From an uncultured Christensenellaceae bacterium (GTDB lineage Bacteria; Bacillota; Clostridia; Christensenellales; Borkfalkiaceae): 64,000 nt of DNA. The notes under the pieces are model-generated. The model was not told where the DNA came from, did not search any database, and saw only the letters and a program-made list of their open reading frames with translations. Positions 6,565-28,350 of this stretch are shown here, one piece after another. Made by a program: the position numbers and the translations under genes. The stretch is from assembly GCA_910587825.1 (NCBI GenBank), contig CAJUNJ010000006.1:34732-98731 (forward strand), in the 5' to 3' direction. Within the stretch, counting starts at the first letter, position 1. The number at the start of each line of letters is the position of its first letter.

Positions 6565-6566
6565 TT

Positions 6567-7458: not shown

Positions 7459-7503
7459 TAAAGAGTAATTTGGGGAATATTCTTATTTTACAGAGGTAGT
7501 TTT

Positions 7504-9618: not shown

Positions 9619-9632
9619 GGAGAAAATAATAT

Positions 9633-9860: not shown

Positions 9861-9869
9861 TTTCAAATA

Positions 9870-9906
9870 AAAAAATCTCAACGGTAAAACCGTTGAGATT
9901 TTTTTA
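9870..9906 (+). terminator. rho-independent terminator
   Basis: ATCTCAACGG-taaaa-CCGTTGAGAT followed by a T-run. Confidence 0.8.
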
Positions 9907-9967
9907 TTAAAACACCTTAAAATTGCTTGTAATTTTTATTCTGATTATATATAATAATTAAGAAATT

Positions 9968-10042
9968 GGGGTGTCGCCAAGCGGTAAGGCAACGGACTCT
10001 GACTCCGTCATTCGTTGGTTCAAATCCAGCTACCCCAGCCAA
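9968..10042 (+). tRNA. tRNA-Gln (anticodon CUG), CCA encoded
   Basis: Hand-folded cloverleaf. The acceptor stem is TGGGGTG/TACCCCA, the D arm GCC-AAGCGGTAA-GGC, and the anticodon arm ACGGA-CTCTGAC-TCCGT (CTG in the centre). The T arm is GTTGG-TTCAAAT-CCAGC, with discriminator G and CCA. Total length is 75 nt. Confidence 0.9.
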
Positions 10043-10102
10043 AAAGCCTTTTTTTCGTGTGTTTTTAACCGAAATTCACGAAGAAAAGGTCTTTTTTTAT
10101 GC
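9998..10102 (+). repeat. attL: left copy of the ~105-bp direct repeat (3' 45 nt of tRNA-Gln plus ~60 nt downstream)
   Basis: CTCTGACTCCGTCATTCGTTGGTTCAAATCCAGCTACCCCAGCCAAAAAGCC...GGTCTTTTTTTATGC recurs at 25052-25158 with 3 differences. Confidence 0.85.
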
Positions 10103-10129
10103 TGTTTTGGGTGTAAATTTGGGTGTAGG

Positions 10130-10939
10130 CTATTCCGTAATGAACTTAACCTTGTTCATCTGCCTAATCATAAAGTCATCTTTGTAATGTACGTAAGTTT
10201 TACCGACAAGCCGTTCGGGGCATACTGATGCAAAGGTGTGCCGCAGATTGTAAAAGGTTACGCTTGCATCATCGAATATCTTTTTAAACAAGTCTAAACT
10301 CTTCGGATAAGACATTGAAAAGGTTATCGGCTCGTCAAAGTTTAAATATTCCCGTGCTTGCTTCGGTATGGGAATTTTTTTATACTCAATTTTACCGCCT
10401 TTGCGCTTACGGTTACGACAAATCAAAAAACCATTTTCAAATCTTGCTTCTTTGTCCAGTTCGCACGGACGCAAACCGAAGAAGTAAAGCACGTAAGCTC
10501 CCTGACGTATTCTATCGTATTTCGGGTCTTTAATCTTGTTGAAGAATGTGTGTATTTTTTCGGGAGATAAATCGCCCCTGCTTTCGCGTTCGGCTCTTTT
10601 AAAAGGAAGTAGAGTAACGGGGTTATGATTAATGATACCGCTTGCAATAGCGTATTTAAAAGTTTGATTTAACACGCTGCGCAACTCTTCGTACATTCTG
10701 GGAGCGTCGGCAAAGTTATGTAGAATCCTGTCAATATCAGATGTCCGAATAGCTGAAATTTCAATATTGCCTAAGTCATTTAAAATAAACCGCTCGCCAA
10801 GACTTTTATAATCTCTGCAAGTTCCTTCCGAAATTTGTCCTTTTTTGTATTCAAGCCATTCGGTGAATACAGCAGTAAAATCAAATTTAAAAACCGAAGG
10901 AAGTTTAGGCGTATCAATTATGGCAAGCGGAATCGCCAT
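10130..10939 (-). CDS. int: tyrosine site-specific integrase (short, 269 aa)
   Basis: It has a core-binding-type N-terminus and catalytic-domain landmarks GLRPCEL (Arg I), NLRHTFAS (Arg II/His) and KTYVHY (candidate Tyr). It lies 88 nt from the tRNA end, reading toward it. Confidence 0.75.
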   Translation of the reverse strand: MAIPLAIIDTPKLPSVFKFDFTAVFTEWLEYKKGQISEGTCRDYKSLGERFILNDLGNIEISAIRTSDIDRILHNFADAPRMYEELRSVLNQTFKYAIASGIINHNPVTLLPFKRAERESRGDLSPEKIHTFFNKIKDPKYDRIRQGAYVLYFFGLRPCELDKEARFENGFLICRNRKRKGGKIEYKKIPIPKQAREYLNFDEPITFSMSYPKSLDLFKKIFDDASVTFYNLRHTFASVCPERLVGKTYVHYKDDFMIRQMNKVKFITE

Positions 10940-11032
10940 AGTTTTAGACTGTTTGGAAATAGACCCGCTGAAAATCGGTCAGCAGTCGCCCGCGCAGACT
11001 TCGCGATTGCTTATAAAATTCTTAAACGAAAC

Positions 11033-11384
11033 AATGGCAAAATTTCGGTTTTTGCAATACGTACGGCGGCGTTGGATATTCGAGTGCGCAGAAGGGGGAC
11101 AAATGCTGAGATTGCAGTTCGCCGATGACAGCGGAGAAGAAACTTATCTTGTAACCAATAAAAGCATTATGGGCGACATCAAGCGGGTGCGCTCAATGCT
11201 TTCTGAAAGGATATTGTTTTTCCACAGCGACGTGAACGTTAATACTATTCAACTAATCGAAGATATTGAAAATTACGTGTTTGACGACAAGACGGGCGAC
11301 ATAAAAAAACAGCAGCGCGACGATACAATCGACAGTTTAGAGTACGCGACGAAATTATATTACGACGCGCCCGTTGCCGCTTAA
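11033..11384 (+). pseudogene. C-terminal remnant of a phage terminase large subunit
   Basis: ...IEDIENYVFDDKTGDIKKQQRDDTIDSLEYATKLY resembles the end of the terminase nuclease domain (Y.wD...kp.k..DD..DalrYa). There is no ATPase half, and the upstream part of ORF 10845-11384 overlaps int. Confidence 0.5.
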
Positions 11385-11415
11385 ACAGTTGTAAAATTTA
11401 AAGGAGTATGATATA

Positions 11416-11760
11416 ATGAAATTCGACGAAAGCGAACACCCGCGCGGACAACCTGATAACAAGGGACAGTTTGTTAAAAAGGGCGGCAGAAAATCAGAAG
11501 AAGCCGAAAAAATTTACGGTTCGGATACTCAACCGAATTTTAGCTTGTCCAAGCGGGAATATGCGGTTCTGCGTAAAGAAGTAATGCGTAAGAACGTCGC
11601 GCAAAAGGGGAAAGTAAAACAAATTAATGGTGCATTTACAAGTAACAATTTTTACGTCTATTCTACGCACGGTGGAGATAGCTTCGTCCCGTTAAAACAA
11701 TTCGATATAGAAAAAGACAGAGATAAAATAAATTATTGGCTTAAAAGATTAGGAGATTAA
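11416..11760 (+). CDS. phage-type hypothetical protein with N-terminal HPRG..G.F motif
   Basis: The RBS is AAGGAG. MKFDESEHPRGQPDNKGQFVKKGG is a motif I associate with phage head-morphogenesis/polyvalent proteins (from memory). Confidence 0.45.
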   Translation: MKFDESEHPRGQPDNKGQFVKKGGRKSEEAEKIYGSDTQPNFSLSKREYAVLRKEVMRKNVAQKGKVKQINGAFTSNNFYVYSTHGGDSFVPLKQFDIEKDRDKINYWLKRLGD

Positions 11761-11967
11761 ATGTTTACGCCTACTGAAAATCAAGAAAAATTAGCGGACT
11801 ATTTAAAACAAAAAGATTTTGAAAAAGAAATGAAATTAGGTATTCTATTATGCTGTGAAACGGACGAACAGGCAAAAAAAATGCTTGAATTTTGTTTGGC
11901 TAATCCAGAACTTGAAGATTATGAATATTTGGAAAAAGCGGTAGATATTTCTAACGGGAAAGAATAA
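11761..11967 (+). CDS. hypothetical small acidic protein
   Basis: The 68-aa ORF starts at the base after the previous stop (TAAATG) and has a terminator downstream. Confidence 0.4.
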   Translation: MFTPTENQEKLADYLKQKDFEKEMKLGILLCCETDEQAKKMLEFCLANPELEDYEYLEKAVDISNGKE

Positions 11968-11976
11968 TAAAATTTT

Positions 11977-12003
11977 AAGCACGACGTAAGCCGTGCTTTT
12001 TTA
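11977..12003. terminator. hairpin between convergent genes
   Basis: AAGCACG-acgtaagc-CGTGCTT followed by TTTTT. Confidence 0.6.
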
Positions 12004-12036
12004 ATGCAAAAAAGGAGGAATAATGTCACAATCATA

Positions 12037-12384
12037 TCAGGCATTGGCTGGCGGCACGGCGCGTAAAGCGATAATCTCTTTTTCAACGTCCTTTTTCTTT
12101 TTGGGAATAGGCTTGTCCGTTGCCTTTTCAACCGCTTGTGTAAGTTCTGTAAGTTCGGCTTGCTTGCGTTCTGTCTGTTCGTCGATTTCCGAACCTCGCT
12201 GTTTGGCGGTTTCAACAATCTTTTTTGCCTTGTATTCTGCCGTATCAAGATGTACCGCCTGACTGTTTGGCTTGCCTCTGTCAAGTTCGTATTTTTCCCC
12301 GACTTTCTTCCATATTTCCGTCTGCAACTGCGAAAGCTTTTTGTTGAGAATCGGTATTAGCTCGGCGCAACTTCGGCGTTGCAA
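12037..12384 (-). pseudogene. coiled-coil C-terminal fragment of a frameshift-decayed gene (possibly mobilisation/recombination-type tail)
   Basis: The TTG-initiated ORF reads ...HLDTAEYKAKKIVETAKQRGSEIDEQTERKQAELTELTQ. The 160 nt upstream reads on in a second frame (TEPVTLDKIRSDFPFITGYLRAENSVLEGVNLNELYAYIKDKQSELQGQN...), which itself abuts ORF 12547-12753 in a third frame. Confidence 0.3.
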
Positions 12385-12546
12385 TGTTCCTTGAATTTTA
12401 AAACTACCGAATACATATTTTGTCCTTGAAGCTCTGACTGTTTGTCTTTAATGTAAGCGTAAAGTTCGTTGAGATTTACGCCTTCCAAAACAGAGTTCTC
12501 CGCCCGTAAATAACCTGTTATAAACGGAAAATCGCTACGGATTTTA

Positions 12547-12753
12547 TCAAGAGTAACAGGTTCGGTTATCGGCTTTCAAATCGTCCGAGAGTAGTAATAA
12601 CATACTCGTTATTTTGTCGGTAGCAAGCTCGTCAAATTCCTTGTCACGGAACATAAATTCAAGTAATTTTTTAAGAGATTGTCCTGCTTCGGTGTGGGTT
12701 AAGTTGCTGATGTTGTCCATATAAGACTTGTAAAAGTTGAATTGTTTAATCAA
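12547..12753 (-). CDS. hypothetical protein (possibly the N-terminal piece of the decayed gene downstream)
   Basis: The 68-aa ORF has the RBS GGAGGAAA 7 nt upstream. Confidence 0.35.
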   Translation of the reverse strand: MIKQFNFYKSYMDNISNLTHTEAGQSLKKLLEFMFRDKEFDELATDKITSMLLLLSDDLKADNRTCYS

Positions 12754-13084
12754 ATAATTTCCTCCGATAATTTTTATTTTTCCGCTTGTTTACCGACTTG
12801 CGGCATAAGTCTTTTTAATTGTTTGTTAGCTTGTATCCATATTAACCTCCGAAATAATTTATATCTTCATCCACGCAAAATAGCGCGGTACGATAGCTGA
12901 AATAAGGGTACAAAAAAGCCGCTGATACGCACAACGTAATCACCGACTTAACCGTATTTAGCAATGCTCAAATGCTCTATGGTGGTTAGCCATTCTATGA
13001 AATTTTTTGTACGCTGAAATTAACCCTCAACTCGTCGCAACACACTCTTTTGTCAGCCATTTAAGCAATGGCTTGACTTTACGG

Positions 13085-13136
13085 TTGGTTGCTCCTCTTC
13101 CCAAAAAGTTCTTCGATACTTTTTGGGAGCCCTAAT
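13085..13136. repeat. hairpin-containing ~52-nt repeat, copy A
   Basis: TTGGTTGCTCCTCTTCCCAAAAAGTTCTTCGATACTTTTTGGGAGCCCTAAT has an internal stem CCCAAAAAGT/ACTTTTTGGG. Confidence 0.7.
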
Positions 13137-13224
13137 CTCATGGGAATCTCGGATAACTCCGGTTGCGCGTCGCAATCAAACATAATGTGCACGCAATAAA
13201 TTTCATTCATTGCTTAGCTAAATG

Positions 13225-13277
13225 TTTGTTGCTCCTTTTTCCAAAAAGTTCTTCGATACTTTTTGGAAGTCCTTAAT
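13225..13277. repeat. hairpin-containing ~52-nt repeat, copy B
   Basis: TTTGTTGCTCCTTTTTCCAAAAAGTTCTTCGATACTTTTTGGAAGTCCTTAAT lies 140 nt after copy A. Both copies are preceded by GTCGCAA(C/T)A(C/A)AC about 50 nt upstream. Confidence 0.7.
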
Positions 13278-13422
13278 AAGGGTATCATACGAACTCTATC
13301 GTATAAGTTTATTATATCATAAATTTTATAGATGTCAAGAGAAAACAAACATTTGTTTATATTATTTTTTTGTATCTTATTGTCTATTTTATAATTAAAG
13401 TGTCGAATTTCAAATAAGTAAA

Positions 13423-13446
13423 CCGCCGACGGAGTCCCGTCGGCGG
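13423..13446 (-). terminator. terminator hairpin downstream of fic
   Basis: CCGCCGACGG-agtc-CCGTCGGCGG, followed by a T-rich stretch on the minus strand. Confidence 0.6.
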
Positions 13447-13468
13447 CTGGCTGGCTATTTTAACCTTT

Positions 13469-14323
13469 TTAATCTTCTGTTTCGTAATAGTAGGAATAGT
13501 CTATACCTTTCATAAACATTTCACGGTTGTCAATTTCGTCTGTAAGCGCACTGCTGATAAGTGCAAGAATATCGGTATAATCCATAGGACTTTTCTGCAT
13601 TGCTGTAAGATACGCCCGCTTGTCTATCTTGCTCCAATCTACGCATTTGCGCAAATTCTTTTTCAAAATCAGGTCAAGCCAGATTCTCGTGCTTCTGCCG
13701 TTGCCTTCCATAAATGGATGAGCGACATTCATTTCTACATACTTCTTCACAATGTTTTCAATTGTATCTTCCGGCATCTTGTCAATGATTGCAAGATTTT
13801 CTTTCAGGTACATTGACGGGGCAAACGCAAATCCGCCTTTTGCAATGTTCAAGCCGCGAATTTTACCCGCAAAATCGTAAAGCCCGCCGAAAATAAATCC
13901 GTGAATTTGCTGTAAACCTTTCGTAGTACCTACTTCGATTTCGTCTATCAAGCCGTTTTCAAAGAGTTCGTAAGCCTTTTGTTTGCTCTTTTCGTCTAAT
14001 GTGCTTCCGATTCCTTTTACCCATCTGGAAAAGTTCTCTTTGTTTTTTGCAGGTATGAGCGCAGTAATAAGGGTAACGCCGTTTTCGTCCACGACGTCTG
14101 TAAGGTAGGACTTTCCGTCGTTTGCCTTTAATTTCAGTTGTTTGCAAATTGCAATCAACTGAGTATTTCGGCGTTTCATCGTAGCCCAATAAACACGTGG
14201 ATTATTACTTTTTGTCAACGCCTGCGAAATGTCCATAGCGCAAAACCACCATTTGGAAGTATCGTCATCCCAAACGGCTCTCACGGGAATATCTTCAAAA
14301 AATCTGATAGACGTCTTTATCAT
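13469..14323 (-). CDS. Fic-domain protein (AMPylase-type motif) with Bro-N-like N-terminal domain
   Basis: It carries the canonical Fic motif [12 protein letters not shown] (HxFx[D/E]GNGRxxR). The N-terminus [31 protein letters not shown] resembles Bro-N/antirepressor domains. Confidence 0.85.
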
Positions 14324-14423
14324 GCTAATTCAATCCGTGTGCTTTTTCTCTATTCTACCACAAAAAATAGATTCTTGCAATCTGTTCAAACGCATTTCCA
14401 CAGAAGATGTTTTTCTGGTTTTA

Positions 14424-14453
14424 TTGACAATAGACAATAAAGTATGCTATAAT
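14424..14453 (+). promoter_or_regulatory. strong extended -10 promoter at the head of the XRE/R-M operon
   Basis: TTGACA (14424-14429), an 18-nt spacer and TGcTATAAT (14445-14453). A tandem GACAATA GACAATA overlaps the -35 box. Confidence 0.65.
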
Positions 14454-14477
14454 ATGTTATAATTTGATAGGTGTATT

Positions 14478-14681
14478 ATGGAATTCTCAAAATTCTGCCT
14501 TGAAACAAGGCTAAAGCTCAATTTAAGTCAGGAAATGTTGGCACGGAAGCTCGACGTTTCTTTTGCAACAATCAACCGCTGGGAGAACGGCAAAGCCCTT
14601 CCCCAGAAACTGACACTATACCGTTTTGAAAAGTTCTGCGAAGAAAACGGTATAGAATTTGTCACAAACTTGACTCTTTGA
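14478..14681 (+). CDS. XRE-family helix-turn-helix regulator (controller-protein-like position)
   Basis: LSQEMLARKLDVSFATINRWENGKALP is a classic HTH_3 signature. It is the first gene of the operon and is divergent from fic. Confidence 0.85.
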   Translation: MEFSKFCLETRLKLNLSQEMLARKLDVSFATINRWENGKALPQKLTLYRFEKFCEENGIEFVTNLTL

Positions 14682-14706
14682 AAATTTTACGTGCGAGGAA
14701 ATTATT

Positions 14707-15540
14707 ATGGCTACGAGTAAGAAACTTGAAATTATATACTACAACGGACAACCTGACGGTGTGCGTTCTGTCCGTCGTCATCTGTCTACAATTACTACTT
14801 ATGTAATACCGCGTCCTTTGCTATCGGAAGCAAAGAAGATTTCGGGTATTACAAGACCCGGCATCTATTATCTAATTAATGAGAACGATGAAAATAAAAT
14901 TGCACAAATCTATATTGGGCAGACGCGCAACGGTGTAACACGCCTTGATGACCATAACCGTTCCAAAGATTTCTGGAATAAGGCGATTGTGTTCCTTGCC
15001 GACAACAAGACCTTTTCTCTTGATATGATAAGCGGGCTTGAAGAATACGCCATTATTAAAGCTCACGAAGCAAAGCGTTATAAGGTCGAAAATTCAGTTA
15101 AACCTAAATATGAGATTGACGAATACGACCTTCCCTCTATCGAAGAAGTATATGACGAAATTCAATTCGTCATGGCAACGCTCGGATATAAGATGAATAA
15201 TGCAAAAAAGAACGAAGATCAACGAGAAGTACTCCACACTACTCGTAACGGAATTACAGCTTATGGGGTATATACCGGAGATAAATTTGAAGTACTTGAA
15301 GATTCCGAAGTCGATATGAAAACCAAATGCCTTGAATGGCAAAAAATTCAACTTCAAAGACAAAACGCTTTAAAAAATGGTGAAATTGTTGAAAAAAATG
15401 GAAAATACATATTAAAGGTTTCAGTGTCATTTTCTTCACCTAGTGCTGCCGCAGCTTTCATTTTGGGGCACAATGCCAATGGTTGGATATCGTGGAAAAA
15501 CAAAGATGGAAAAACATTAGACGAAATTTACAGAAAATAA
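14707..15540 (+). CDS. GIY-YIG nuclease domain protein with C-terminal DUF4357-like domain
   Basis: The GIY-YIG landmarks are GIYYL...QIYIGQT...R(LDDH)...LEEYAI...VEN. The C-terminal SPSAAAAFILGHNANGWISWK matches my memory of DUF4357. Confidence 0.7.
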   Translation: MATSKKLEIIYYNGQPDGVRSVRRHLSTITTYVIPRPLLSEAKKISGITRPGIYYLINENDENKIAQIYIGQTRNGVTRLDDHNRSKDFWNKAIVFLADNKTFSLDMISGLEEYAIIKAHEAKRYKVENSVKPKYEIDEYDLPSIEEVYDEIQFVMATLGYKMNNAKKNEDQREVLHTTRNGITAYGVYTGDKFEVLEDSEVDMKTKCLEWQKIQLQRQNALKNGEIVEKNGKYILKVSVSFSSPSAAAAFILGHNANGWISWKNKDGKTLDEIYRK

Positions 15541-15586
15541 ATTAAACAGAATTATTCCGCTTATACAGAAAAACGAAAAACATAAT

Positions 15587-16882
15587 ATGGAAGAGAATTT
15601 ATTTAACAAAATTTTAACCCGAGTTCACGCAGATGAAATTACCACTTCAAATTTCTATAAAGACGAAGAGTTTGAGAATTTTATTGAAATTCTTAACGAA
15701 GACATAGGAAAATTTAAAAATTATACTTATGACGGCAAAGCTCAAGACTTGATATTTAAGGGATTAAAAAAGTTTAGTCCCCTAGCTACTAAATATGGTC
15801 AATTTCTAAAGTATTTGGAAGTTGAATTCGATAAGTTAGTTGTACCTTGCATCATTTTAATACCTCTGAATTTTTTAAATGATAATGTTTTGAAATCTGA
15901 TTTATCTCTCACCGACAACATAAAACTATTTAAAACTGAGAAAGCAAATACAGTTCAAAAGCTAAAAATATCAAAGAAAAAGTCTGCTTTAGAAAAATAT
16001 GTTGAAACAACTATATATGCAAAATTACTGAAAGAACATATTTTACTTGCAAAAGATAAAAACTTTTTTAACTTTCCTATATTAGCGATTAATATTAACT
16101 GTATCAATTATCAGGCTGACAATGAATCTTCCATCATAACAGAAGCTACATATAGTTTTATCAGAATGTTAGATTATTCTTCGCCCCGAGATGGATATGG
16201 GTGGGGAATATTGGATCAAGATAAACTTCCGACTAGGTTGTATGGTGTTTATTATAACGAAGTTGGAACATCTCCAAAAGCTCCGTACAATAACGGATAT
16301 GGTTATTCAGGGCGTTTTAAGTTTTCGCCCTATTTGGATATTAACTCAACTGAATTTATTAAACAAATTGACCTTTTCCGTGATTTGCTTGTTAAATTTT
16401 GTAATAATTGTTTTTTAGATAAACGAAAGATAGACAAAAAGACAGTCTTAAAAATTGAAAAATGGCAAAAAGCAGTTCTTTTATATAATACCGCTTATGA
16501 GTTTGCATCAATAGAAAAATATGATGAATGCCTTTTACAGCAAATTATAATTTTAGAATTATTGTTTCTTGGAAATTCGGAACATAACAAGCGGGTTGCA
16601 TTATGCGATAAAATAACTCCTTTCATGGAGAATAATTACGGCGCAGATTCCGACGCCATAAAAGAAGTTATAGAAAATGCTTATAAAAAGAGAAACAAGT
16701 TTGTACACGAAGGGCAAAGCATTTGTTACAACTTTTCTACATTTAAGTCGTTAAACAGCCATCAAGGTCTTATACGAGGCATGAAGCCTTTTGCTTATGG
16801 TGGCGGAGATATCCCGATAGATAACATTAAACTTCTGAAAAATTTATTTGTTCTTATAGGCAAAATTATTACGAAGTATTGA
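15587..16882 (+). CDS. 431-aa protein with C-terminal HEPN-like domain (Rx4H), N-terminal region unassignable
   Basis: The C-terminal ~120 aa is predicted helical and contains IILELLFLG and AYKKRNKFVHEG (R-N-K-F-V-H = Rx4H, as in Apea-/DUF4145-type HEPN). No other motif was recognised. Confidence 0.5.
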   Translation: MEENLFNKILTRVHADEITTSNFYKDEEFENFIEILNEDIGKFKNYTYDGKAQDLIFKGLKKFSPLATKYGQFLKYLEVEFDKLVVPCIILIPLNFLNDNVLKSDLSLTDNIKLFKTEKANTVQKLKISKKKSALEKYVETTIYAKLLKEHILLAKDKNFFNFPILAININCINYQADNESSIITEATYSFIRMLDYSSPRDGYGWGILDQDKLPTRLYGVYYNEVGTSPKAPYNNGYGYSGRFKFSPYLDINSTEFIKQIDLFRDLLVKFCNNCFLDKRKIDKKTVLKIEKWQKAVLLYNTAYEFASIEKYDECLLQQIIILELLFLGNSEHNKRVALCDKITPFMENNYGADSDAIKEVIENAYKKRNKFVHEGQSICYNFSTFKSLNSHQGLIRGMKPFAYGGGDIPIDNIKLLKNLFVLIGKIITKY

Positions 16883-16914
16883 CATTACAGAAATAAAAAT
16901 TAGGAGAAATTATT

Positions 16915-18546
16915 ATGGCAAAGGATAAAGAAAAAACAGTATCTTTGGAAGATGTTCTGTGGGATTGCAGAGTCTCTTTGCGTGGCGTTGGCAGTCTTGA
17001 TAAAAACAGAGACGCTGTTATCAGTTTAGTATTCTTGAAATTTGCAGGAGATAAATTCAAAAAATGCCGTGAACAGATTATTAAAGAATATGGCGAGATT
17101 CCCGCTTTCGTGGAAAAGCCTTCGTTTTATAATGCTGAAAATGTATTCTATCTGAAAGAAACCGCTCGTTGGACGTATATAGTAGACCACGCAAGCCAAA
17201 ACGATATCGCCGTAATAATCGACCAAGCAATGGCTGATATCGAGAATGACAATCCCTCTCTTGCCGGTGCTTTATCAAAAAATTTATTCTCCACGCTCGG
17301 GGCAGATAAAAACAAAATTAAAAGTTTGATAGACAGTGTAAACCGTATTGACGAAAAGCGGTTTCACGAAGAAGATTTGATAGGCAGAGTTTACGAATAC
17401 TTTCTGCAAATTTATGCTGCGTCCGGAACGAAAGAAGACGGTGAATTTTATACTCCCGCTAGTATTGTAAAACTTATAGCCGAAATGATAGAACCTTATG
17501 ACGGCGTTGTTTATGACCCCTGTTGCGGAAGCGGCGGTATGTTTGTTCAGTCAATGAAGTTTGTAGACAAGCATAATGGAAACCGCGATAAAATATCGGT
17601 TATCGGACAGGAAAGCGTACAAGAAACTTGGCGTCTCTGCAAAATGAATCTCGCTATCCGCGGCATTGCGCATAACCTTGGTAAAACCAACGCTTCAACG
17701 TTTACTGACGACCAGCACAAAGATAAAAAAGTTGACTATATAATGGCAAACCCTCCGTTCAACCTTAAAAATTGGAGAACGGAAAACGAACTTATAAATG
17801 ACGCCCGTTGGAGCGGTTATTGTGAAACGGCACCTCGCGTCTCTAATGCTAACTATGCTTGGATTCTGCACATGATTTCCAAGCTTGATGTAAATCACGG
17901 AATTGCCGGCTTCTTACTTGCCAACGGTGCATTAGGCGATTCAGACGATGCTGAAATCCGCAAGAACATATTACTTAAAGATAAAGTTGAAGCGATAATT
18001 GTTTTACCCCGAGATATGTTCTATACAACTGATATATCCGTTACACTTTGGATTATCAACATGAATAAACGCGCAGGAACAGTAAACGGCAGGAAAGTTC
18101 GTGACAGAAGCCACGAAGTATTGTTTATGGATTTGCGCACTTGGGATAACAATATAGAAGAAATCACTATTGATAAAGGCAAGAAAAAGAAAAAAACCGT
18201 ACTTACTGACGGCCAGATTGCAAAAATAAAAGAAATATATACAAATTGGCAAAGCAAAGATAGAACGCTTTATCGGGATATACCAGAACTCTGTAAATCG
18301 GTAAAAGTAAACAACAGCGATTTAACAGACGAAGAGATTAAAAACAACGTTGTTACTATTGAAAAGCAGAACTATGCTCTTATGCCAAGCAAATATATCG
18401 AGTTTATCGACCACGACTTGGATATCGATTATCACACTGAAATGCAACGTATTCAAAAAGAAATGTCAGAAGTCATAAAGCAAGAACGAGAATCACAAAA
18501 ATTATTGTCTGCCGCTTTCAAGGGGATTGGCTATGGCATTGACTAA
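16915..18546 (+). CDS. hsdM: type I restriction-modification system, N6-adenine DNA methyltransferase subunit
   Basis: It has an HsdM N-terminal region, the AdoMet motif VYDPCCGSGGMF and the catalytic NPPFN. Confidence 0.95.
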   Translation: MAKDKEKTVSLEDVLWDCRVSLRGVGSLDKNRDAVISLVFLKFAGDKFKKCREQIIKEYGEIPAFVEKPSFYNAENVFYLKETARWTYIVDHASQNDIAVIIDQAMADIENDNPSLAGALSKNLFSTLGADKNKIKSLIDSVNRIDEKRFHEEDLIGRVYEYFLQIYAASGTKEDGEFYTPASIVKLIAEMIEPYDGVVYDPCCGSGGMFVQSMKFVDKHNGNRDKISVIGQESVQETWRLCKMNLAIRGIAHNLGKTNASTFTDDQHKDKKVDYIMANPPFNLKNWRTENELINDARWSGYCETAPRVSNANYAWILHMISKLDVNHGIAGFLLANGALGDSDDAEIRKNILLKDKVEAIIVLPRDMFYTTDISVTLWIINMNKRAGTVNGRKVRDRSHEVLFMDLRTWDNNIEEITIDKGKKKKKTVLTDGQIAKIKEIYTNWQSKDRTLYRDIPELCKSVKVNNSDLTDEEIKNNVVTIEKQNYALMPSKYIEFIDHDLDIDYHTEMQRIQKEMSEVIKQERESQKLLSAAFKGIGYGID

Positions 18547-19648
18547 ATATAAATTAGGGGAACTTATTGAACTTTCTGAAGAAAGAAATTTTCATAGGCA
18601 ATTTACATTGCATTCTGTAAGAGGTATAGCTACAAAAAAAGAATTTATTGAAACAAAAGCAGATATGGACGGTGTAAGTTTAAATAGTTATAAAATCGTT
18701 TATCCAAACTTTTTTGCTTATGTTCCTGACACATCTCGAAGAGGTGATAAGATTTCATTGTCTATAAATAAATCCAATAATGTTTATTTAGTATCGTCTA
18801 TATCGACTGTATTTAAAATAAGTAACCACCATATTTTACTCCCAGATTATTTATTTATGTACTTCAATCGTCCTGAATTTGATAGATACTCTCGCTTTAA
18901 TTCTTGGGGGTCGGCAAGAGAAACTTTTTCATGGGAAGAAATGTGCGATATTGATATTGTCCTACCTCCTATTGAAATTCAGAAAAAGTATGTTGATGTT
19001 TACAATTCAATGGTTGAAAATCAAACAGCATACGAAAAAGGTCTTGAAGATTTAAAACTTGTTTGCGACGGCTTTATAGAAGACTTACGCCGAAAAATGC
19101 TTTGTGAGAAGATTGGGCAATATTTGGAATACCACGATATAAGAAATTCAGACAATAAATGCACTAATGTAAAGGGTGTAACAGTATATAAGAATTTTAG
19201 AGAACCCACGTCAAAAGTAAATAGAGATGAGTTGCGCGGATATAAAATTGTAAAGCCTTCTTGGATTACTTTTGTGCAAACAACTCACAACGAAAAAGTA
19301 TTTGCGTATGCCTTTAATAACACAAATGAAGATATAGTTGTATCTTCGGTAAACGAGGTGTTTTCCACAAACACAAAAAAACTTTTACCGCAATATTTGT
19401 GTATGTTTTTCAATAGAAAAGAATTTGACCGATATGCGCGATTTCATTCTTGGGGATCGGCGCGAGAGACTTTTACTTGGAATGATTTGATTGAAGTTGC
19501 TATTCCTATACCCGATATAGATATTCAGCAATCCATTGTTGATATTTATAATCAATACATAACACGAAAAGAAATCAACGAAAAACTAAAAACACAAATC
19601 AAAGACCTTTGTCCTATTCTAATCAAGGGTTCTTTGCAAGAAGCATAA
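18527..19648 (+). CDS. hsdS: type I R-M specificity subunit
   Basis: It overlaps hsdM by 20 nt. It has two target-recognition halves, each ending in a conserved repeat (RPEFDRYSRFNSWGSARETFSWEEM...IEIQKKYVDVYN and RKEFDRYARFHSWGSARETFTWNDL...IDIQQSIVDIYN). Confidence 0.9.
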   Translation: MAMALTKYKLGELIELSEERNFHRQFTLHSVRGIATKKEFIETKADMDGVSLNSYKIVYPNFFAYVPDTSRRGDKISLSINKSNNVYLVSSISTVFKISNHHILLPDYLFMYFNRPEFDRYSRFNSWGSARETFSWEEMCDIDIVLPPIEIQKKYVDVYNSMVENQTAYEKGLEDLKLVCDGFIEDLRRKMLCEKIGQYLEYHDIRNSDNKCTNVKGVTVYKNFREPTSKVNRDELRGYKIVKPSWITFVQTTHNEKVFAYAFNNTNEDIVVSSVNEVFSTNTKKLLPQYLCMFFNRKEFDRYARFHSWGSARETFTWNDLIEVAIPIPDIDIQQSIVDIYNQYITRKEINEKLKTQIKDLCPILIKGSLQEA

Positions 19649-19662
19649 GGAGATAAAATATT

Positions 19663-20430
19663 ATGGATTTTGAAAAATTAAATTTATTGATTGCCGAAGC
19701 CGATTGGTTAATAGACGAAGGTGTAACATCAGGTGATAGCAGATTTCAAGCATGGAAAATGAAAGTTTCACGATTTTTAATTAAGACCTTTGGTGAAAAA
19801 AGCCATGAATATGAGTATTTTCAACACACATCCTTTTCTTTAGGGGTATACACATTATCAACGCCAGATAGTGCTTTTGTAGAGGCTTGTACTAATGGAT
19901 TACGTATTACAAGAGATGTGTTGTCTACTTATCTCGACGAAATGGAAGAAGAACTGCCAAAAAGAAATATCAAAGCTAAGGTAAGCACTAATTTCTCAAA
20001 AGTTTTTATTGTGCATGGACACGATGGAGAATTAAAAGAAGCAGTTGCACGCTTAATTGAGCAACAAAGTATCGAAACGATTATATTATCTAATAAAACA
20101 AATGAAGGCAAAACAATTATAGAAAAAATCGAACATTACAGTGATGTGAGTGCGGCTATATGTTTATTTACCGCAGATGATAAAGGGAAAGCCAAATCGG
20201 AAAAATCATTGAGTGACCGAGCAAGACAAAATGTGGTATTCGAAGCGGGATATTTTATGGGGAAACTTGGTCGAAATCGTATGGTTATTGTGGCTGAAAG
20301 TAATGTCGAACTTCCTTCCGATATGAGCGGAATGGTTTACACTAATAAATCCGATTGGAAAGTCGAAGTATTAAAGGAATTGAAATCGATGGGTTTTGCT
20401 ATCGATTTCAATAAACTTTTTGAGGAATAA
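19663..20430 (+). CDS. TIR-like domain protein (Cap12 / Pycsar-effector type), with ~110-aa unassigned N-terminal domain
   Basis: KVFIVHGHDGELKEAVARLIE...TIIEKIEHYSDVSAAICLFTADD...RARQNVVFEAGYFMGKLGRNRMVIV...ELPSDMSGMVY matches the prokaryotic TIR-like family pattern (VFIVHGhD ... ARqNVifElGyF ... PSDl.G). It includes the conserved Glu. Confidence 0.7.
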   Translation: MDFEKLNLLIAEADWLIDEGVTSGDSRFQAWKMKVSRFLIKTFGEKSHEYEYFQHTSFSLGVYTLSTPDSAFVEACTNGLRITRDVLSTYLDEMEEELPKRNIKAKVSTNFSKVFIVHGHDGELKEAVARLIEQQSIETIILSNKTNEGKTIIEKIEHYSDVSAAICLFTADDKGKAKSEKSLSDRARQNVVFEAGYFMGKLGRNRMVIVAESNVELPSDMSGMVYTNKSDWKVEVLKELKSMGFAIDFNKLFEE

Positions 20431-20433
20431 CAT

Positions 20434-23400
20434 ATGACCTACCATTTTACCAAAGGACAATTTAATGAATCTGAGCTTGAAAGTGCAATAATAGAATTGT
20501 TCAAAAATCAAGAATATGATTATATTCACGGAGATAGTATTCACCGTAAATATGAGGACGTATTACTTGAAGATGATTTGCGTGCTTATTTGTCTGAACG
20601 CTATGCGAAAGAAAGCCTTACCGAAAGTGAAGTGCAAATGATTATCAATCGCATAAAGCTTATTCCTTCAACTCCTCTTTATGCGGGAAACCGCGAAACG
20701 TTTTGGCTTATCAACGAAGGTTTTGACCTTGTAAGGGATGACCCTGATAAAATTGCTTTACATGTCGACTTTATTAATTTTGATTCTCCTAAGCAAAACA
20801 AATTCAAGGTTGTAAACCAATACTACGTTAAGGGCGAGCATTTACGTTGTCCCGATATGCTAGTGTTTATCAACGGTATACCTATGGCAATTTGGGAATT
20901 CAAATCTGCTATAAAAGAAGATACTACTATTTACGACGCATGGAAACAAATTAATATAAGGTACAACCGCGATATTTCTAAACTGACTAAATACTGCTTT
21001 CTTTCCGTTATTTCTGACGGTGCGAATACAAGGCTTGGAACTATCTTTACTCCTTATAAATTTTATTTTTCTTGGAATAAAGCAAACGAACAAGATACAG
21101 TTTCAAACGGTATAAGCTCACTTTTTACTATGGTAGAAGGCGTATTCGCAAAAGAACGCATTATTTCTATCCTGCGTGATTTTGTTTTCTACCCCGATAA
21201 TAGCGACAAGGAAGAAGCTATCATTTGCCGTTATCCGCAATATTTTGCTGCAAATAAAATGCTACAAAGTTTAAAGAATCACAAAAAGCCGTCCGGAGAC
21301 GGCAAGGGTGGAATTTATTTCGGGGCTACCGGATGCGGGAAAACATATACTATGTTGTTCTTGTGCAGAATGTTAGCACACAGAGACAGCGCAGCTTTTG
21401 GCAATCCCACTTCACTTATCTTGGTTGACCGCGAAGACTTAGATAATCAAACATCGGAGTTGTTTGAAAGAGCAAAAAGATTTTTAAGCGATAAAAATGT
21501 TCGCAGCATTGAAACCAGAAAGGATCTGCATGATACGTTAATTGTTAATCAAAGCGGCGGCGTCTATATAACTACTATTCAGAAATTCTGTGAAGATACA
21601 GGTCTTTTATCGGAGAGAAATAATATTTTCTGCATTTCCGATGAGGCGCACCGTACACAATTGAGTGTTGGCAATAAACTTAAAAAGACTGAAAAAGGTC
21701 TAGTAAATACATACGGATTTGCACAATATCTGCGTTGGAGTTTTCCTAACGCTACCTATTGCGGATTTACAGGTACGCCTATTGACGAGGCTATTGCGGT
21801 ATTTGGAGATATTGTTGATAGCTACACTATGAAAGAAGCCAGTGATGACGGTATAACTGTCCGCATTTCCTATGAACCCCGTCTCGCGCGGGTTATTCTA
21901 TCAGAGGAACAGGCGAAAGAGATTCAAATGTATTACGATAAATGTGCTGAAGAAGGTTCAACGCCCGAACAGATTGAAGAAAGTCAAAAGGCTATGTCCA
22001 AAATTTCTGCTATCCTAGGACATCCCGATGTATTAAAACGGTTGGCAAAAGATATTGTAGAGCATTACGAGAATCTTTGTAATGAAAAACCTAATATAGT
22101 TCAAAAAGCAATGATTGTTTGTGCCGATAGAATTCTGGCATATAAATTATTGCAAGAGATTTTGAAAATCAGAAATGATTGGGGTAAAGCAAGGAAAGCT
22201 GAAGACGAAAGCAAGCTTACAAAAGAGCAATTGGACAAGCTTAAGGCATTGCCTAAAATTAACCTTGTTGCAACGCAAGGCAAAGATGATGAGAAAAAGC
22301 TTTACGACCTTTGCGGTTCTAAGGCTTATCGGCAAATGCTTGATAAACAATTCAAAGATGACAATTCCAATTTCAAAATCGCTGTTGTTGTCGATATGTG
22401 GATTACAGGCTTTGATGTCCCTTCGCTTTCTGTTATGTACATAAATAAACCTTTACAGAAACACACGCTTATCCAAACTATTTCAAGAGTCAATAGGGTT
22501 TTTGAAGGCAAAGAAAGAGGACTTGTAGTTGATTATATTGGCATTAAAAACGATATGTTGAAAGCCGTTAAAAAATACGGAAGCCCGCAGGAAAGTCCTA
22601 TTGACGAAATTAATATTTCATTAGGAATATTCCGAAATCATCTGTCAATGTTGGATGATTTGATGATAGGTTTCAATGCAACCCGCTATTATACTGGTAA
22701 TTCTCTTGAGCGCTTATATTGCTTAAATGATGCAGCCGAATATGTACAGCTAAATAAGGAAATGCAAACGAGATTTATGGGGCTTTCAAAACGTTTGAAA
22801 GGGGCTTATCAGATTGTATTCCCTACAGGAGAACTAACTCAAATCGAAATATCCAAGGCACAATTTTATCTTGCTATTCGTTCAATTATTTACAAGCAAA
22901 CTATCGGCGATGCGCCTGACGCAGAAGTAATGAATAGCATTGTAGAGGAAATGGTAAAACAAGCAATAACATGTACTGGCGTTGAAAATATAATTGACGA
23001 GAATAAATCTGTCGACTTATTCAGTGAAGAATTTTTAAAAGAGCTGGATGCAGTTAAAATGCCTATTACAAAGTTCAACGCATTAATTAAGTTATTGCGA
23101 AAAGCTATTGTTAGTTATGGCAAAGTCAACAAAGTTAAATCGTTAGAATTTGACGAACGCTTAAAGCGCGTTGTTGATGCTTACAACAACAGAGATAAAC
23201 TTACATTCGCAAGTGAAGTTGTTGCCGATTTTATGGACGATTTGTGTAATCAGCTAATTGATATCTTCAATGACTTGAAAGAAGACAAAACATCTTTTGA
23301 AAAGTTAGGAATTACATTCGAAGAAAAAGTGTTCTACGATATTCTGGTAAAAGTACGCGATACTCACGGTTTTGAATACGAGGATAAAAAATGCGTGTCG

Positions 23401-23601
23401 CTTGCAAAAGAAATCAAAAAGATTGTTGAAGACAAAACACAATATGTCGATTGGTCTACTCGCTCTGATATAAGAAACAAATTAAATAAGGAGTTGACTA
23501 TACTTTTGTATAAAAACGGTTATCCTCCCGAATGGGACGAAGAAGTTTTTGAAAAAGTAATGGAACAAGCTGAGAATTTCAAACGGTACAATGGAGATTA
23601 A
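20434..23601 (+). CDS. hsdR: type I R-M restriction (helicase-nuclease) subunit
   Basis: The 1055-aa protein has an HsdR N-terminal nuclease region, Walker A GATGCGKT, the DEAH box SDEAHRTQ, helicase C-terminal motifs and a type I-specific C-terminal helical domain. Confidence 0.95.
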   Translation: MTYHFTKGQFNESELESAIIELFKNQEYDYIHGDSIHRKYEDVLLEDDLRAYLSERYAKESLTESEVQMIINRIKLIPSTPLYAGNRETFWLINEGFDLVRDDPDKIALHVDFINFDSPKQNKFKVVNQYYVKGEHLRCPDMLVFINGIPMAIWEFKSAIKEDTTIYDAWKQINIRYNRDISKLTKYCFLSVISDGANTRLGTIFTPYKFYFSWNKANEQDTVSNGISSLFTMVEGVFAKERIISILRDFVFYPDNSDKEEAIICRYPQYFAANKMLQSLKNHKKPSGDGKGGIYFGATGCGKTYTMLFLCRMLAHRDSAAFGNPTSLILVDREDLDNQTSELFERAKRFLSDKNVRSIETRKDLHDTLIVNQSGGVYITTIQKFCEDTGLLSERNNIFCISDEAHRTQLSVGNKLKKTEKGLVNTYGFAQYLRWSFPNATYCGFTGTPIDEAIAVFGDIVDSYTMKEASDDGITVRISYEPRLARVILSEEQAKEIQMYYDKCAEEGSTPEQIEESQKAMSKISAILGHPDVLKRLAKDIVEHYENLCNEKPNIVQKAMIVCADRILAYKLLQEILKIRNDWGKARKAEDESKLTKEQLDKLKALPKINLVATQGKDDEKKLYDLCGSKAYRQMLDKQFKDDNSNFKIAVVVDMWITGFDVPSLSVMYINKPLQKHTLIQTISRVNRVFEGKERGLVVDYIGIKNDMLKAVKKYGSPQESPIDEINISLGIFRNHLSMLDDLMIGFNATRYYTGNSLERLYCLNDAAEYVQLNKEMQTRFMGLSKRLKGAYQIVFPTGELTQIEISKAQFYLAIRSIIYKQTIGDAPDAEVMNSIVEEMVKQAITCTGVENIIDENKSVDLFSEEFLKELDAVKMPITKFNALIKLLRKAIVSYGKVNKVKSLEFDERLKRVVDAYNNRDKLTFASEVVADFMDDLCNQLIDIFNDLKEDKTSFEKLGITFEEKVFYDILVKVRDTHGFEYEDKKCVSLAKEIKKIVEDKTQYVDWSTRSDIRNKLNKELTILLYKNGYPPEWDEEVFEKVMEQAENFKRYNGD

Positions 23602-23629
23602 AGATTAATTAATCTTATTTCGATAATTT

Positions 23630-24685
23630 ATGAAACAAAAGAAACTACGGACGGATATACTTTTTCTAATAATTTTTATTATTTGGACAATTATTGCTGC
23701 AACTCTATTTTTTGCCGTTGCAAAAAATGAAAATGCAGATACAGCAATTATCCTTAAAATATTGAAAATCTTAATCGGTATTTTTTATATGCCAGTACCG
23801 TTCTTGCCTTTTGTGTTAATTTATTTACATAAACGCAGTAAAGCAACTGGTGATGGGAAGCCTTTGAGTGTTGAGGCAATGCGTGAAAGTAAAAAACATA
23901 TACCAGAAAAAATTTATAAGTTCTGTTCTTTGACTTCCAAAGGTGAAAATGAAAAGTTAAATAAGAGTAAATTAAAAACTCTTGCAAGCAATGAAATTTG
24001 GCTATCAAGGTGTTCTGATTTGAACGACCCATTTGAAGGAATTAAATTCATTTTACCTGAAAGTAATTTCTCGCAAAACGGGCTACCAGAAGAAATCAAA
24101 AATAGATATAATGTTAAAAATACGGGTGAATTAATCGATTTTTTAAGCAGTTTTAGAGATAAATACTGTCAAACATCCTTTTCTTCTTCGTATAATGATG
24201 TCCAAATGTGGGGTTACTATGCTAATGGGTGTAGAGGTTACTGTGTAGAATATAAAGTATTGGAAAAAGAAATGCTATTTCCAGTATTTTATGTTAATAA
24301 ACGCATAATCCTATCTGGATTATTTAAAAGTGCACGGTATAAGCGGCAATGCTTGAAAAATTTAAAGCAATTGCATAAAAGTCTACGTAGTGTTCCAACA
24401 AAGGAATATGTTCAATATAACTTATATTTGCAATCATTTAAGTACGCCAAATGGCAGTTCGAAAAGGAGATTAGAGCAATTGACATAACAGCACCATATT
24501 ATAAAGGCGGTAATCAGTCTGCAACTAATTTTGGATTACAGCCAACAAAAATTATTGCTGGATACTTGTCGGAGTATATTGAGGAACTAAAACAAATAGC
24601 AATTCAAACAAATATATCATTTTCTATTATGAAACCTAATTTTGAAACAAATAAGTTTGAACTTAAAGAACAAAAGATTTTATAA
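23630..24685 (+). CDS. DUF2971-family protein with two N-terminal transmembrane helices
   Basis: IYKFCSL...IWLSRCSDLNDPFEG and MWGYYANGCRGYCVEY match the DUF2971 signature (YkY.s...fs....fNDPfE ... mWshYa....G.c). The N-terminal TMs are LFLIIFIIWTIIAATLFFAVA and ILIGIFYMPVPFLPFVLIYL. Confidence 0.7.
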   Translation: MKQKKLRTDILFLIIFIIWTIIAATLFFAVAKNENADTAIILKILKILIGIFYMPVPFLPFVLIYLHKRSKATGDGKPLSVEAMRESKKHIPEKIYKFCSLTSKGENEKLNKSKLKTLASNEIWLSRCSDLNDPFEGIKFILPESNFSQNGLPEEIKNRYNVKNTGELIDFLSSFRDKYCQTSFSSSYNDVQMWGYYANGCRGYCVEYKVLEKEMLFPVFYVNKRIILSGLFKSARYKRQCLKNLKQLHKSLRSVPTKEYVQYNLYLQSFKYAKWQFEKEIRAIDITAPYYKGGNQSATNFGLQPTKIIAGYLSEYIEELKQIAIQTNISFSIMKPNFETNKFELKEQKIL

Positions 24686-24699
24686 GCAAATACAATGTG

Positions 24700-24733
24700 A
24701 AACAAAATCGGGGCGAAAGCCACGATTTTGTTT
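24700..24733 (+). terminator. hairpin terminating the R-M operon
   Basis: AAACAAAATCG-gggcgaaagcca-CGATTTTGTTT. Confidence 0.6.
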
Positions 24734-24751
24734 CCTGAAAATTATACATTT

Positions 24752-24959
24752 TTGGGAGCTACCCTAAATTTGGGAGTTATACTCCCAAAAATCGGCTATA
24801 GGGCGTTGTGGAAATTGGGAGTTGCTCCCAAATTGGCATTGAATGACGGACAAAAGTGGTTTTTTGTCCGTCATTCAAAAATTGTGCGATAAAATTTGCA
24901 AAGACAAGGTAAAAAAATACCCCCAAACGATGTAAAATCATTTGGGAGAAATATGGGAG
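24752..24959. promoter_or_regulatory. cluster of seven TTGGGAG / CTCCCAA heptamers (two forming palindromes) next to attR
   Basis: TTGGGAG occurs at 24752, 24769, 24815 and 24942, with ATGGGAG at 24953. CTCCCAA occurs at 24782 and 24825. There is also a separate hairpin, GAATGACGGACAAAA-gtggt-TTTTGTCCGTCATTC, at 24841-24875. Confidence 0.5.
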
Positions 24960-25051
24960 TTAAAAATTGAAAATCATCGAAAGTTGCTTATATTGTGGTT
25001 ATTGTTGTTGAAAAACACTACATATTGTGGTTGTAAAGTTCGTCTTTAAGC

Positions 25052-25158
25052 CTCTGACTCCGTCATTCGTTGGTTCAAATCCAGCTACCCCAGTCAAAAA
25101 GCCTTTTTTTCGTGTGTTTTTAACCGAAATTCACGAAGGAAAGGTCTTTTTTTTATGC
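25052..25158 (+). repeat. attR: right copy of the direct repeat (tRNA-Gln 3' half, no CCA, no 5' half)
   Basis: It matches 9998-10102 except for C>T in the CCA, A>G in GAAGAAAAGG and one extra T. Confidence 0.85.
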
Positions 25159-25217
25159 GGAAATCAGCCGAATTTGCGTGCAACTTGCGTGTATGCCGCT
25201 TCGATTATATAATATAG

Positions 25218-28334: not shown

Positions 28335-28350
28335 ATTTACGGAGAATTAA

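Follow-up and report, generated by a model that had tools for sequence, protein, structure and literature searches.

The tRNA-Gln locus

Is the tract of about 15 kb that follows a tRNA-Gln gene in an uncultured Christensenellaceae bacterium one integrative element with an unusually long attachment (att) repeat, or the product of several insertions? The tract lies in a window of 64,000 nucleotides (contig CAJUNJ010000006.1 of assembly GCA_910587825.1; the window is the whole stretch that was analyzed), in which a first-pass annotation had described an island set in tRNA-Gln(CUG) between att repeats of about 105 bp. It is likely that the region from 9997 to at least 25841 arose by serial site-specific integration into the anticodon loop of this tRNA gene, followed by deletions that fused the successive occupants, and that it is now immobile. 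This reading is carried by the anatomy of the tract, its mosaic homologies, a truncated integrase, the linkage of a terminator hairpin (named T60 here) to integrating elements, and the variants found among strains. The occupants are called E0, an int1-type prophage at the left end; E1, a defense island; and E2, a remnant to the right of the distal repeat. Genomes (G) and loci or contigs (L) carry our own handles.

The direct repeat and its attachment block

The repeat and its hairpin are located as follows.

9997–10102, plus strand: attL copy of the repeat, comprising 45 nt of tRNA (anticodon loop to CCA), 57 nt of hairpin and T-run, and ATGC (repeat finder, local alignment)
10042–10102, plus strand: T60, a terminator hairpin with U-run (RNA folding; variants adjoin integrases in L022/L023, G435 and G168)
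25052–25158, plus strand: attR copy of the repeat, a displaced tRNA 3′ half (CCA changed to TCA) with a second T60 hairpin

ARAGORN places the intact tRNA-Gln(CUG) gene, with its CCA encoded, at 9967–10041 on the plus strand. The first-pass annotation had also found the gene intact, with an end at 10042 that is to be moved back by one base, and its repeat (9998–10102 and 25052–25158, with three differences, one of which destroys the CCA) was recovered with a shift of one base at most, the start lying at 9997. The two copies measure 106 nt (attL) and 107 nt (attR) and differ by two substitutions and one T indel. C10039 is a T in the distal copy, which thus reads TCA for CCA; A10084 is a G there, the hairpin pair being kept as G-U; and the T-run has seven T in attL and eight in attR. 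Only two copies of the repeat are present genome-wide.

The first base of the repeat is also that of the 7-nt anticodon loop, CTCTGAC. Two islands in the same tRNA gene of other genomes, one of 13.6 kb in G015 and one of 23.6 kb in G002, are bounded by exact 45-nt end repeats with the same start. Because the repeat starts at the anticodon loop and these sister islands carry the same 45-nt block, the att block proper is the 45-nt tRNA 3′ half, and the extra 61 nt lie beyond the CCA. Across the genus, six different right arms all abut CTCTGAC, and identity starts there in the window island and in five other elements. In a survey made with Islander, 2083 of 3919 islands had an anticodon-centered attP, and 125 tandem arrays were recorded (Hudson et al. 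2015, PMC4383910). The window site is of this standard “A-type” (anticodon-centered) class of tRNA sites. The repeat of about 105 bp does not appear to be an unusually long att core, as had been proposed at first; beyond the 45-nt block it seems to consist of an element-borne terminator hairpin.

The Islander definition was applied to the locus. It asks for a complete tRNA gene (tDNA) with a displaced 3′ fragment in the same orientation, an integrase inside the interval, a known crossover class and an unoccupied site in relatives. Here, 25052–25096 lies in direct orientation and is identical to the tRNA 3′ half at 44 of 45 nt. The crossover class is that of the anticodon loop, where the crossover itself would have fallen. 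The interval holds an integrase-family gene that is missing about 130 N-terminal and 17 catalytic-domain residues. As for relatives, sister species hold other elements at the same tRNA, and the tRNA-Gln of several of them is 100% identical to that of the window.

The base composition of the tract is foreign to its surroundings, as the first reading of the sequence had already remarked: the G+C profile gives 36% between the repeats and 45–48% outside. The fraction is 0.361 in the island (10103–25051), 0.454 in the left flank (7504–9966, adjoining the left gene), 0.453 in the right flank (25919–31000) and 0.476 over 34–64 kb. The region at 2–7.4 kb on the left, which holds RHS cassettes, is low in G+C as well (0.368).

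T60 and the P′ arm

Directly behind T60 lies a pair of short repeats, and a comparable arrangement was found at two loci of the genome G168.

10105–10126, plus strand: two direct TTTGGGTGTA repeats, candidate P′ arm-type integrase sites (motif count; the same pair is present in L022)
G168:C10:56725–56990 (L052) and G168:C32:6443–6600 (L042): extended-repeat loci around an element with TTGCGTG arm sites, followed by a second integrase with TTGGGTGTA sites

T60 (61 nt) folds into a hairpin of 17–18 bp followed by a U-run (−22.2 kcal/mol, z = −6.4), and its pairing appears to be kept through two double changes across five sequences. The motif TTGGGWGT is found eight times in the window against 2.4 expected, with five of the eight at the two island ends; TTGGGTGT motifs cluster at the left end, and TTGGGAGT motifs in the right arm of the window island.

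The closest homologue of int1, the integrase gene next to the tRNA, is P0003 (72% identity), which is encoded on two independent metagenome contigs, L022 and L023. On these contigs the integrase is followed by TACACCCAAATTTACACCCAAAA arm repeats as in the window, by a T60 about 90% identical to the one described here, and by a tRNA-Gln 3′ half. T60 and the arm sites were also searched in 401 genomes of the family, and two further cases of T60, G435 and G168, were found. In G435, a right arm bearing the TTGCGTG motif leads into a tRNA half and then a T60, the latter 100% identical to the attL copy; after T60 come an ATGC-GGAAATCAG...TTGCGTGCAAC arm and an integrase fragment, as they do after the attR of the window. 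G168 contributes two loci. At one, the intact tRNA leads into a variant of T60 with TTGCGTG arm repeats and an integrase after it; at the other, on a different contig, a displaced tRNA half precedes a near-identical variant of T60, after which come TTGGGTGTA repeats and a second integrase. G168 is an independent instance of the extended repeat, of about 107 nt, made up of the tRNA-Gln 3′ half and a T60-variant hairpin of about 62 nt.

Elsewhere in the genus the T60 slot is occupied by a different hairpin (ACACTATATATTGT...), with TTTGGGAGT repeats and an integrase behind it. The same layout of hairpin, arm sites and integrase is found behind tRNA-Cys, in one IMG/VR contig and at a second locus of the window genome. 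Since T60 or another hairpin fills the same slot across these loci, the P′ arm appears to follow a general plan of tRNA tail, terminator hairpin, two arm repeats and the end of the integrase gene. T60 is thus carried by the elements and was probably shared by successive occupants of the site; as part of the P′ arm of the element, it would serve the regenerated tRNA gene. The 106-bp repeat is probably the sum of the 45-nt att identity block and a 61-nt terminator module that both E0 and E2 carried.

A native host terminator was also considered for T60. This was ruled out, every T60 found being situated in the P′ arm of an integrase.

The left end: a truncated integrase and probable prophage remains

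Three features make up the left end of the tract.

10130–10939, minus strand: int1, remnant of a tyrosine integrase, 269 aa (alignment A1; 750 homologues; PHROG integrase match)
10845–11384, plus strand: C-terminal fragment of a terminase large subunit (Pfam Terminase_6C positions 45–151 of 155, E = 2e-6; weak PHROG terminase match)
11416–11967, plus strand: two small open reading frames (ORFs) of 114 and 68 aa (weak portal match; strain comparison)

The short tyrosine integrase gene reads toward the tRNA, with its stop codon 88 nt from the tRNA end, just as first annotated. Proteins of the int1 family (750 matches) are about 406 aa long. In alignment A1, int1 is without the N-terminal portion of about 130 aa that forms the arm-binding region, and it has an in-frame deletion of 17 aa between LRHTFAS-C and PERLVG, by which the WMGDS segment is gone. 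The spacing from the catalytic Arg to the Tyr nucleophile is 16 residues, against 32 in the family. The PHROG integrase match covers residues 20–240 only, and Pfam returned no catalytic-domain match for int1. With its arm-binding region absent and its R–Y spacing short, the protein does not have the makeup of a functional heterobivalent (lambda-type) integrase, and we infer from its sequence that integrase function has been lost.

The genome, which is 96% complete, yielded no intact integrase from either family. As int1 itself is truncated, the locus is probably immobile.

Nor did a helper integrase acting in trans come to light, the only other member of the int1 family in the genome (contig C8, by tRNA-Cys) having an internal stop. 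This second gene (G000:C8:64867–65931; locus L036 4859–6079, minus strand) is located behind a tRNA-Val/Gly/Cys cluster, where it has its own hairpin and TTGGGGAGT arm repeats; the internal stop is a TAA.

The terminase fragment had no match by tblastn against 50,697 phage records. The ORFs of 114 and 68 aa are probably scraps of phage head genes. The conspecific contigs L033 and L035 have, in place of these small ORFs, a minor-head-protein fragment of 241 aa, and the ORF of L033 matches phrog_16619 (minor head protein) with E = 1e-17. The DNA from 10103 to about 11960 therefore has the appearance of the remains of an int1-type prophage, E0.

The defense island

From 11964 onward the tract is of a different character.

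11964–14689, either strand: conserved core of E1, with small ORFs, a DUF6291 fragment, twin hairpin repeats, Fic/Bro-N and an XRE helix-turn-helix (HTH) gene (93–97% identity to the G017 island)
12547–12753, minus strand: DUF6291 fragment (Pfam/PADLOC)
13469–14323, minus strand: Fic/Bro-N (Pfam/PADLOC)
14478–14681, plus strand: XRE HTH (Pfam/PADLOC)
14707–24685, plus strand: defense cargo, namely GIY-YIG/DUF4357 (PDC-S14), an unassigned 431-aa protein, hsdM, hsdS, TIR (PDC-S35), hsdR and DUF2971 (PDC-S31) (Pfam, PADLOC)
24738–25051, plus strand: right (P) arm of E1 with TTGGGAGT arm-type repeats (homology to the right end of the G017 island; motif cluster)

An island in the same tRNA gene of a sister species, G017, matches the window at 12059–12123, 12346–13031 and 13278–14689 with 93–97% nucleotide identity. 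Its right end is 87% identical to 24738–25079, the match running up to and into the degenerate attR of G017. Core genes of the window genome and of G017 are only 67–70% identical, and the contrast with the identity of the islands indicates that the E1 type of island recently moved between species. The two islands share the same plan and carry different nuclease and type I restriction-modification (R-M) genes. The G017 island encodes an intact integrase of 401 aa, 25% identical to int1, and has its own hairpin and TTTGGGAGT arm sites. This natural left end of E1 (hairpin, arm sites and integrase) is missing from the window. The DNA from 11964 onward, core and right arm included, would thus belong to an element other than that of int1. 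A defense island of the same kind, with TTTGGGAG arm repeats and a worn tRNA half, was seen in another genome.

What qualifies E1 as a defense island is a complete type I R-M system together with the PADLOC candidates PDC-S04, PDC-S14, PDC-S35 and PDC-S31; R-M and candidate defense genes account for two thirds of the tract. The TIR gene is placed between hsdS and hsdR. Neither Pfam nor PHROGs revealed a replication module (a primase or initiator with an origin) among the island ORFs, and packaging-related sequence is confined to the C-terminal fragment of the large terminase and the head-gene scraps. The first-pass annotation had likewise listed no replication or packaging module apart from a terminase fragment, to which the head-gene scraps are now added. 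With regard to mobilization or conjugation, a 115-aa ORF aligns with only the last 43 positions of Mob_Pre and scores 24.9 bits, below the cut-off of 25.5.

Twin repeats of 50 nt (13084–13133 and 13224–13273), 90% identical, 140 nt apart and each with a palindrome, lie in a gene-free stretch of about 700 nt between the DUF6291 fragment and Fic/Bro-N. The segment 13031–13278, which contains them, is absent from the homologous island of G017.

A third remnant beyond attR

Foreign DNA continues to the right of the distal repeat.

25174–25193, plus strand: two TTGCGTGYA direct repeats, P′ arm sites of E2 (the same motif is found on both arms of E2-type elements in G435 and G168)
25214–25351, minus strand: int2 fragment, the last 45 or so codons of a tyrosine integrase (...VWAGHAADNTQTSKVYTHF...), reading toward attR (translation)
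25427–25834, minus strand: HTH_3 gene with an in-frame TAA, cut short after a hydrophobic stretch (Pfam, translations)

By tblastn, the int2 fragment is 56–65% identical to the C-termini of tRNA-Gln-adjoining integrases from six sister species. The HTH_3 gene is probably part of the E2 remnant and not of the core chromosome. The segment 25677–25841 is 98% identical in G435, whose core genes are 65–76% identical to those of the window genome; the foreign tract would accordingly reach to at least 25841, beyond the end of the distal repeat at 25158. The same 98% identity rules out the candidate assignment of the HTH gene to the core chromosome.

The in-frame TAA of the HTH gene (25796–25798, minus strand; MNIREIPIKPRD-stop-NKLSQQEL...) interrupts helix 1–2 of the HTH_3 domain. 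The window, both strain haplotypes (L030, L033) and G435 all share this stop. It could mark a pseudogene carried with the element, or it could be a conserved recoding or start-site feature.

Variation among conspecific strains and relatives

The proteins of the flanks are present in 320–515 index blocks of public assemblies, and the longest 23–24 contigs were read for each of three anchor proteins. The three sets (24, 23 and 24 contigs) overlap, for a total of 47–71 contigs, many of them from one study. No empty tRNA-Gln site was found among them, every contig bearing the island, whether whole or reduced by deletion. The 269-aa int1 is present in each left-anchored contig, and identity over 3424–11446 is 99.3–99.96%.

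Three kinds of variant were observed. Variant 1 is a clean deletion of 18778–20732 (1955 bp), by which most of hsdS, the TIR gene in full and 100 or so codons at the start of hsdR are lost. This type (L029/L037) is the commonest among the contigs read, mostly from one ENA study. Variant 2 (L033 and L035) is a deletion of about 9.1 kb, from about 15593 to 24689, which starts at codon 3 of the 431-aa ORF and ends shortly beyond DUF2971; in these strains the E1 core is 92% identical and the right arm 86% identical. As the junction of variant 2 keeps ATGGA, from the first two codons of the 431-aa ORF, it looks like a deletion and not like a state preceding insertion. In variant 3, which is haplotype B, 13 nt of attR are left and are fused to a different part of the HTH gene, whereas the TCA change is fixed in the attR of all haplotype-A contigs. 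The 106-bp repeat is thus not universal among island-bearing strains. Because the junction haplotypes keep different pieces of the HTH gene, they are best explained as independent decays of a fuller ancestor.

In practical terms, variant 1 leaves hsdM intact and makes its strains natural knock-outs for restriction as well as for the TIR gene. Strains that differ only by the clean hsdS-TIR deletion or by the deletion of the whole cargo could serve as natural controls for those genes.

Other searches for an unoccupied site were made in more distant material. Scans of JGI metagenomes gave no match for the empty-site pattern and none for a right-junction control either, this species being evidently absent from the collection. 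A DNA synteny search of 40 relatives placed no empty site, the flanks being 64–76% identical and not syntenic, and the left-flank protein of 704 aa, when used as an anchor in relatives, found repeat-domain paralogues only. The empty site sought in the first-pass annotation did not turn up, which counts against recent mobility; sister-species comparisons do show that parts of the tract were acquired horizontally.

Proposed history and alternative explanations

In the standard model of integration at such a site, the 5′ part of the tRNA gene would be chromosomal and everything from 9997 onward would be supplied by the element that integrated last. Each integration would rebuild a complete and terminated tRNA gene by means of the P′ arm, as expected of heterobivalent tyrosine-integrase elements. 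New elements would insert at the intact tRNA and push the previous tRNA tail, along with older occupants, rightward to the far end. An E2-type element with TTGCGTG sites and T60 may thus have arrived first, of which the arm sites, 45 integrase codons and the HTH gene would remain. The defense island E1, of the G017 type, would have followed and would later have lost its integrase end. The int1-type prophage E0 would have come last, bringing the present tRNA 3′ half, T60 and the TTTGGGTGTA/TTGGGTGTA sites. Later deletions could account for the loss of the E0/E1 junction and the E1 integrase and for the little that is left of E0 and E2. Since E0 and E2 carried the same hairpin allele, the composite would have come to be bracketed by the 106-bp repeat.

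The product of this history would be a decayed tandem array. As it stands, the locus falls short of a tandem array proper; it retains two integrase remnants and one fragment, and deletion has taken the E0/E1 junction as well as the far end of E2. It is probably a fixed chromosomal defense locus that changes by deletion and allelic replacement. The first-pass alternatives of a defective prophage remnant and an island carrying defense cargo are both apt, each for a different part of the tract; the assumption of one element is not, as at least three insertions are indicated.

Several considerations weigh against serial integration. No intermediate state, such as an intact E0-attR/L-E1 junction, was seen, and the order of arrival is reconstructed. 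The loss of integrase function is likewise a reading of the int1 sequence. E1 alleles differ by 8–14% between strains and the int1 module is more than 99% identical, which calls for the extra assumption of a later allelic replacement. The contigs read were the longest 23–24 from 320–515 blocks, many of them from one study, and a rare strain with an empty site could escape such a sample. Finally, int1 and E1 could have been joined elsewhere, in a hybrid element that then inserted as a single unit.

In its general form, this last explanation posits a single 15-kb integrative element with int1, whose attP shared about 106 bp of identity with attB, and which integrated once and suffered decay of its integrase later; put otherwise, a pre-formed hybrid would have entered as a unit a site that already had T60. 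We regard it as unlikely, even though the tract is bracketed by one near-identical pair of repeats with no internal tRNA fragment left and similar arm-type motifs, TTGGGTGT and TTGGGAGT, are found at its opposite ends. With T60 already present at the resident site, a T60-bearing attP would yield exactly the repeat observed. However, the core and right arm are of a type that is naturally paired, in G017, with a different integrase, hairpin and set of arm sites, and the left end is made up of pieces of phage genes (terminase, head protein, truncated integrase). Strains also retain different prophage scraps, which points to in-place decay of a fuller tandem array. A different origin for the 61-nt extension, by gene conversion or homologous recombination between attL and attR after integration, would agree with copies that are 97% identical and flanks that diverge abruptly after ATGC. 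However, such an event would have to be resolved through homology beyond the tract, which is lacking; the same junction of T60, ATGC and E2 arm exists in a different genome with a different left neighbor (G435), and G168 has the same extended repeat independently; this origin is consequently very improbable.

The first-pass annotation also raised the possibility of a phage satellite. A PICI-like (phage-inducible chromosomal island) or P4-like satellite, defective or not, would be consistent with the size of about 15 kb, with an integrase that adjoins the tRNA, and with a Bro-N/antirepressor-like domain accompanied by an HTH regulator. But Pfam and PHROGs show no primase or replication initiator, no small terminase, no gene for capsid size or packaging redirection and no AlpA-type regulator. 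The terminase is a C-terminal fragment of the large subunit beside head-gene scraps, in other words prophage debris, and two thirds of the tract are given over to R-M and candidate defense genes. We therefore see no support for a satellite and give it only a slight chance. A local duplication unrelated to site-specific integration, which had been named as a possible source of the repeat, has almost no probability: the repeat starts exactly at the anticodon loop, the arm in front of its distal copy is homologous to the right end of the tRNA-Gln island of G017, and both copies have integrase genes or fragments with arm repeats behind them. Serial integration with subsequent decay remains the preferred reading of the locus.

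Comparison with known systems

Islands in tRNA genes with an anticodon-centered attP, and tandem arrays of them, were reportedly described by Williams in 2002. Like Islander-type tRNA islands, the locus has an intact tDNA with a displaced 3′ fragment in direct orientation, an integrase-family gene by the regenerated tRNA, an identity block from the anticodon to the 3′ end, a foreign composition and stacked occupants. It differs from them in that the integrase is truncated, the occupants are fused by deletion instead of each having its own fragment and integrase, and the identity block continues 61 nt past the tRNA, with two occupants sharing a terminator module.

The attP of Haemophilus phage HP1 shares about 180 bp with a tRNA operon. 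In both cases the identity of element and chromosome extends well past the crossover region and the end of the tRNA gene; in the window, unlike HP1, the extension is a portable terminator carried by successive elements and is not demonstrably host sequence. The cargo recalls the prr locus of E. coli, hsdM-hsdS-prrC-hsdR, in that a complete type I R-M system holds an extra effector-type gene between hsdS and hsdR, with other PADLOC candidates alongside. The gene inserted here encodes a TIR protein and not an anticodon nuclease.

Composites of streptococcal integrative and conjugative elements (ICEs), integrative and mobilizable elements (IMEs) and cis-mobilizable elements (CIMEs) grow by accretion at one att site and then decay (PMC5704250), and tandems of phages and ICEs have also been reported (PMC13651849). 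Such composites resemble the window locus in having unrelated same-site elements side by side, bounded by att repeats, in which internal att sites and recombinases can be lost. Unlike them, the window locus has no identified conjugation or mobilization module, only the sub-threshold Mob_Pre fragment, and no sign that the composite moves.

The locus is therefore an ordinary member of a well-known kind, a tDNA hot spot at the anticodon loop shaped by tandem accretion and decay. Two points only are mildly new: the extended repeat can be understood as a portable terminator that successive occupants have in common, and modules of hairpin and arm sites seem to have been shuffled from one integrase lineage to another. 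A bolder proposal, to which we give a rather low probability, is that the P′ arm is a cassette shuffled across integrase lineages and tRNA targets, and that a shared hairpin and more than 100 bp of identity allow RecA-type loss, swap or capture of integrase-less islands. If this were true, the tRNA-Gln locus would be a platform for the exchange of defense genes.

The case also carries a caution for annotation. Where a tRNA gene carries a long “att repeat”, neither a long recombination core nor a recent single insertion has to be assumed. The integrase that adjoins the tRNA may be a stump, as int1 is, and the DNA that it seemingly mobilized would belong to another element. In this genome the annotation of foreign DNA is best extended to 25841 at the least, with the island regarded as a fixed part of the chromosome. 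A prevalent gut species would thus keep its defense cargo, remodeled by deletion, after the death of the vehicle that brought it.

Other features to the left of the tract

Two features to the left of the tRNA gene may be recorded. At 2106–7215, downstream of an RHS-repeat gene (172–2910), four or five segments of about 120–480 nt recur at 90–96% identity, in what looks like an array of orphan rhs C-terminal/immunity cassettes. At 9866–9908, after a 75-aa ORF and 58 nt before the tRNA gene, there is a perfect 20-nt inverted repeat with a 3-nt loop and A- and T-runs at its sides, which probably acts as a terminator in both directions and so insulates the transcription unit of tRNA-Gln.

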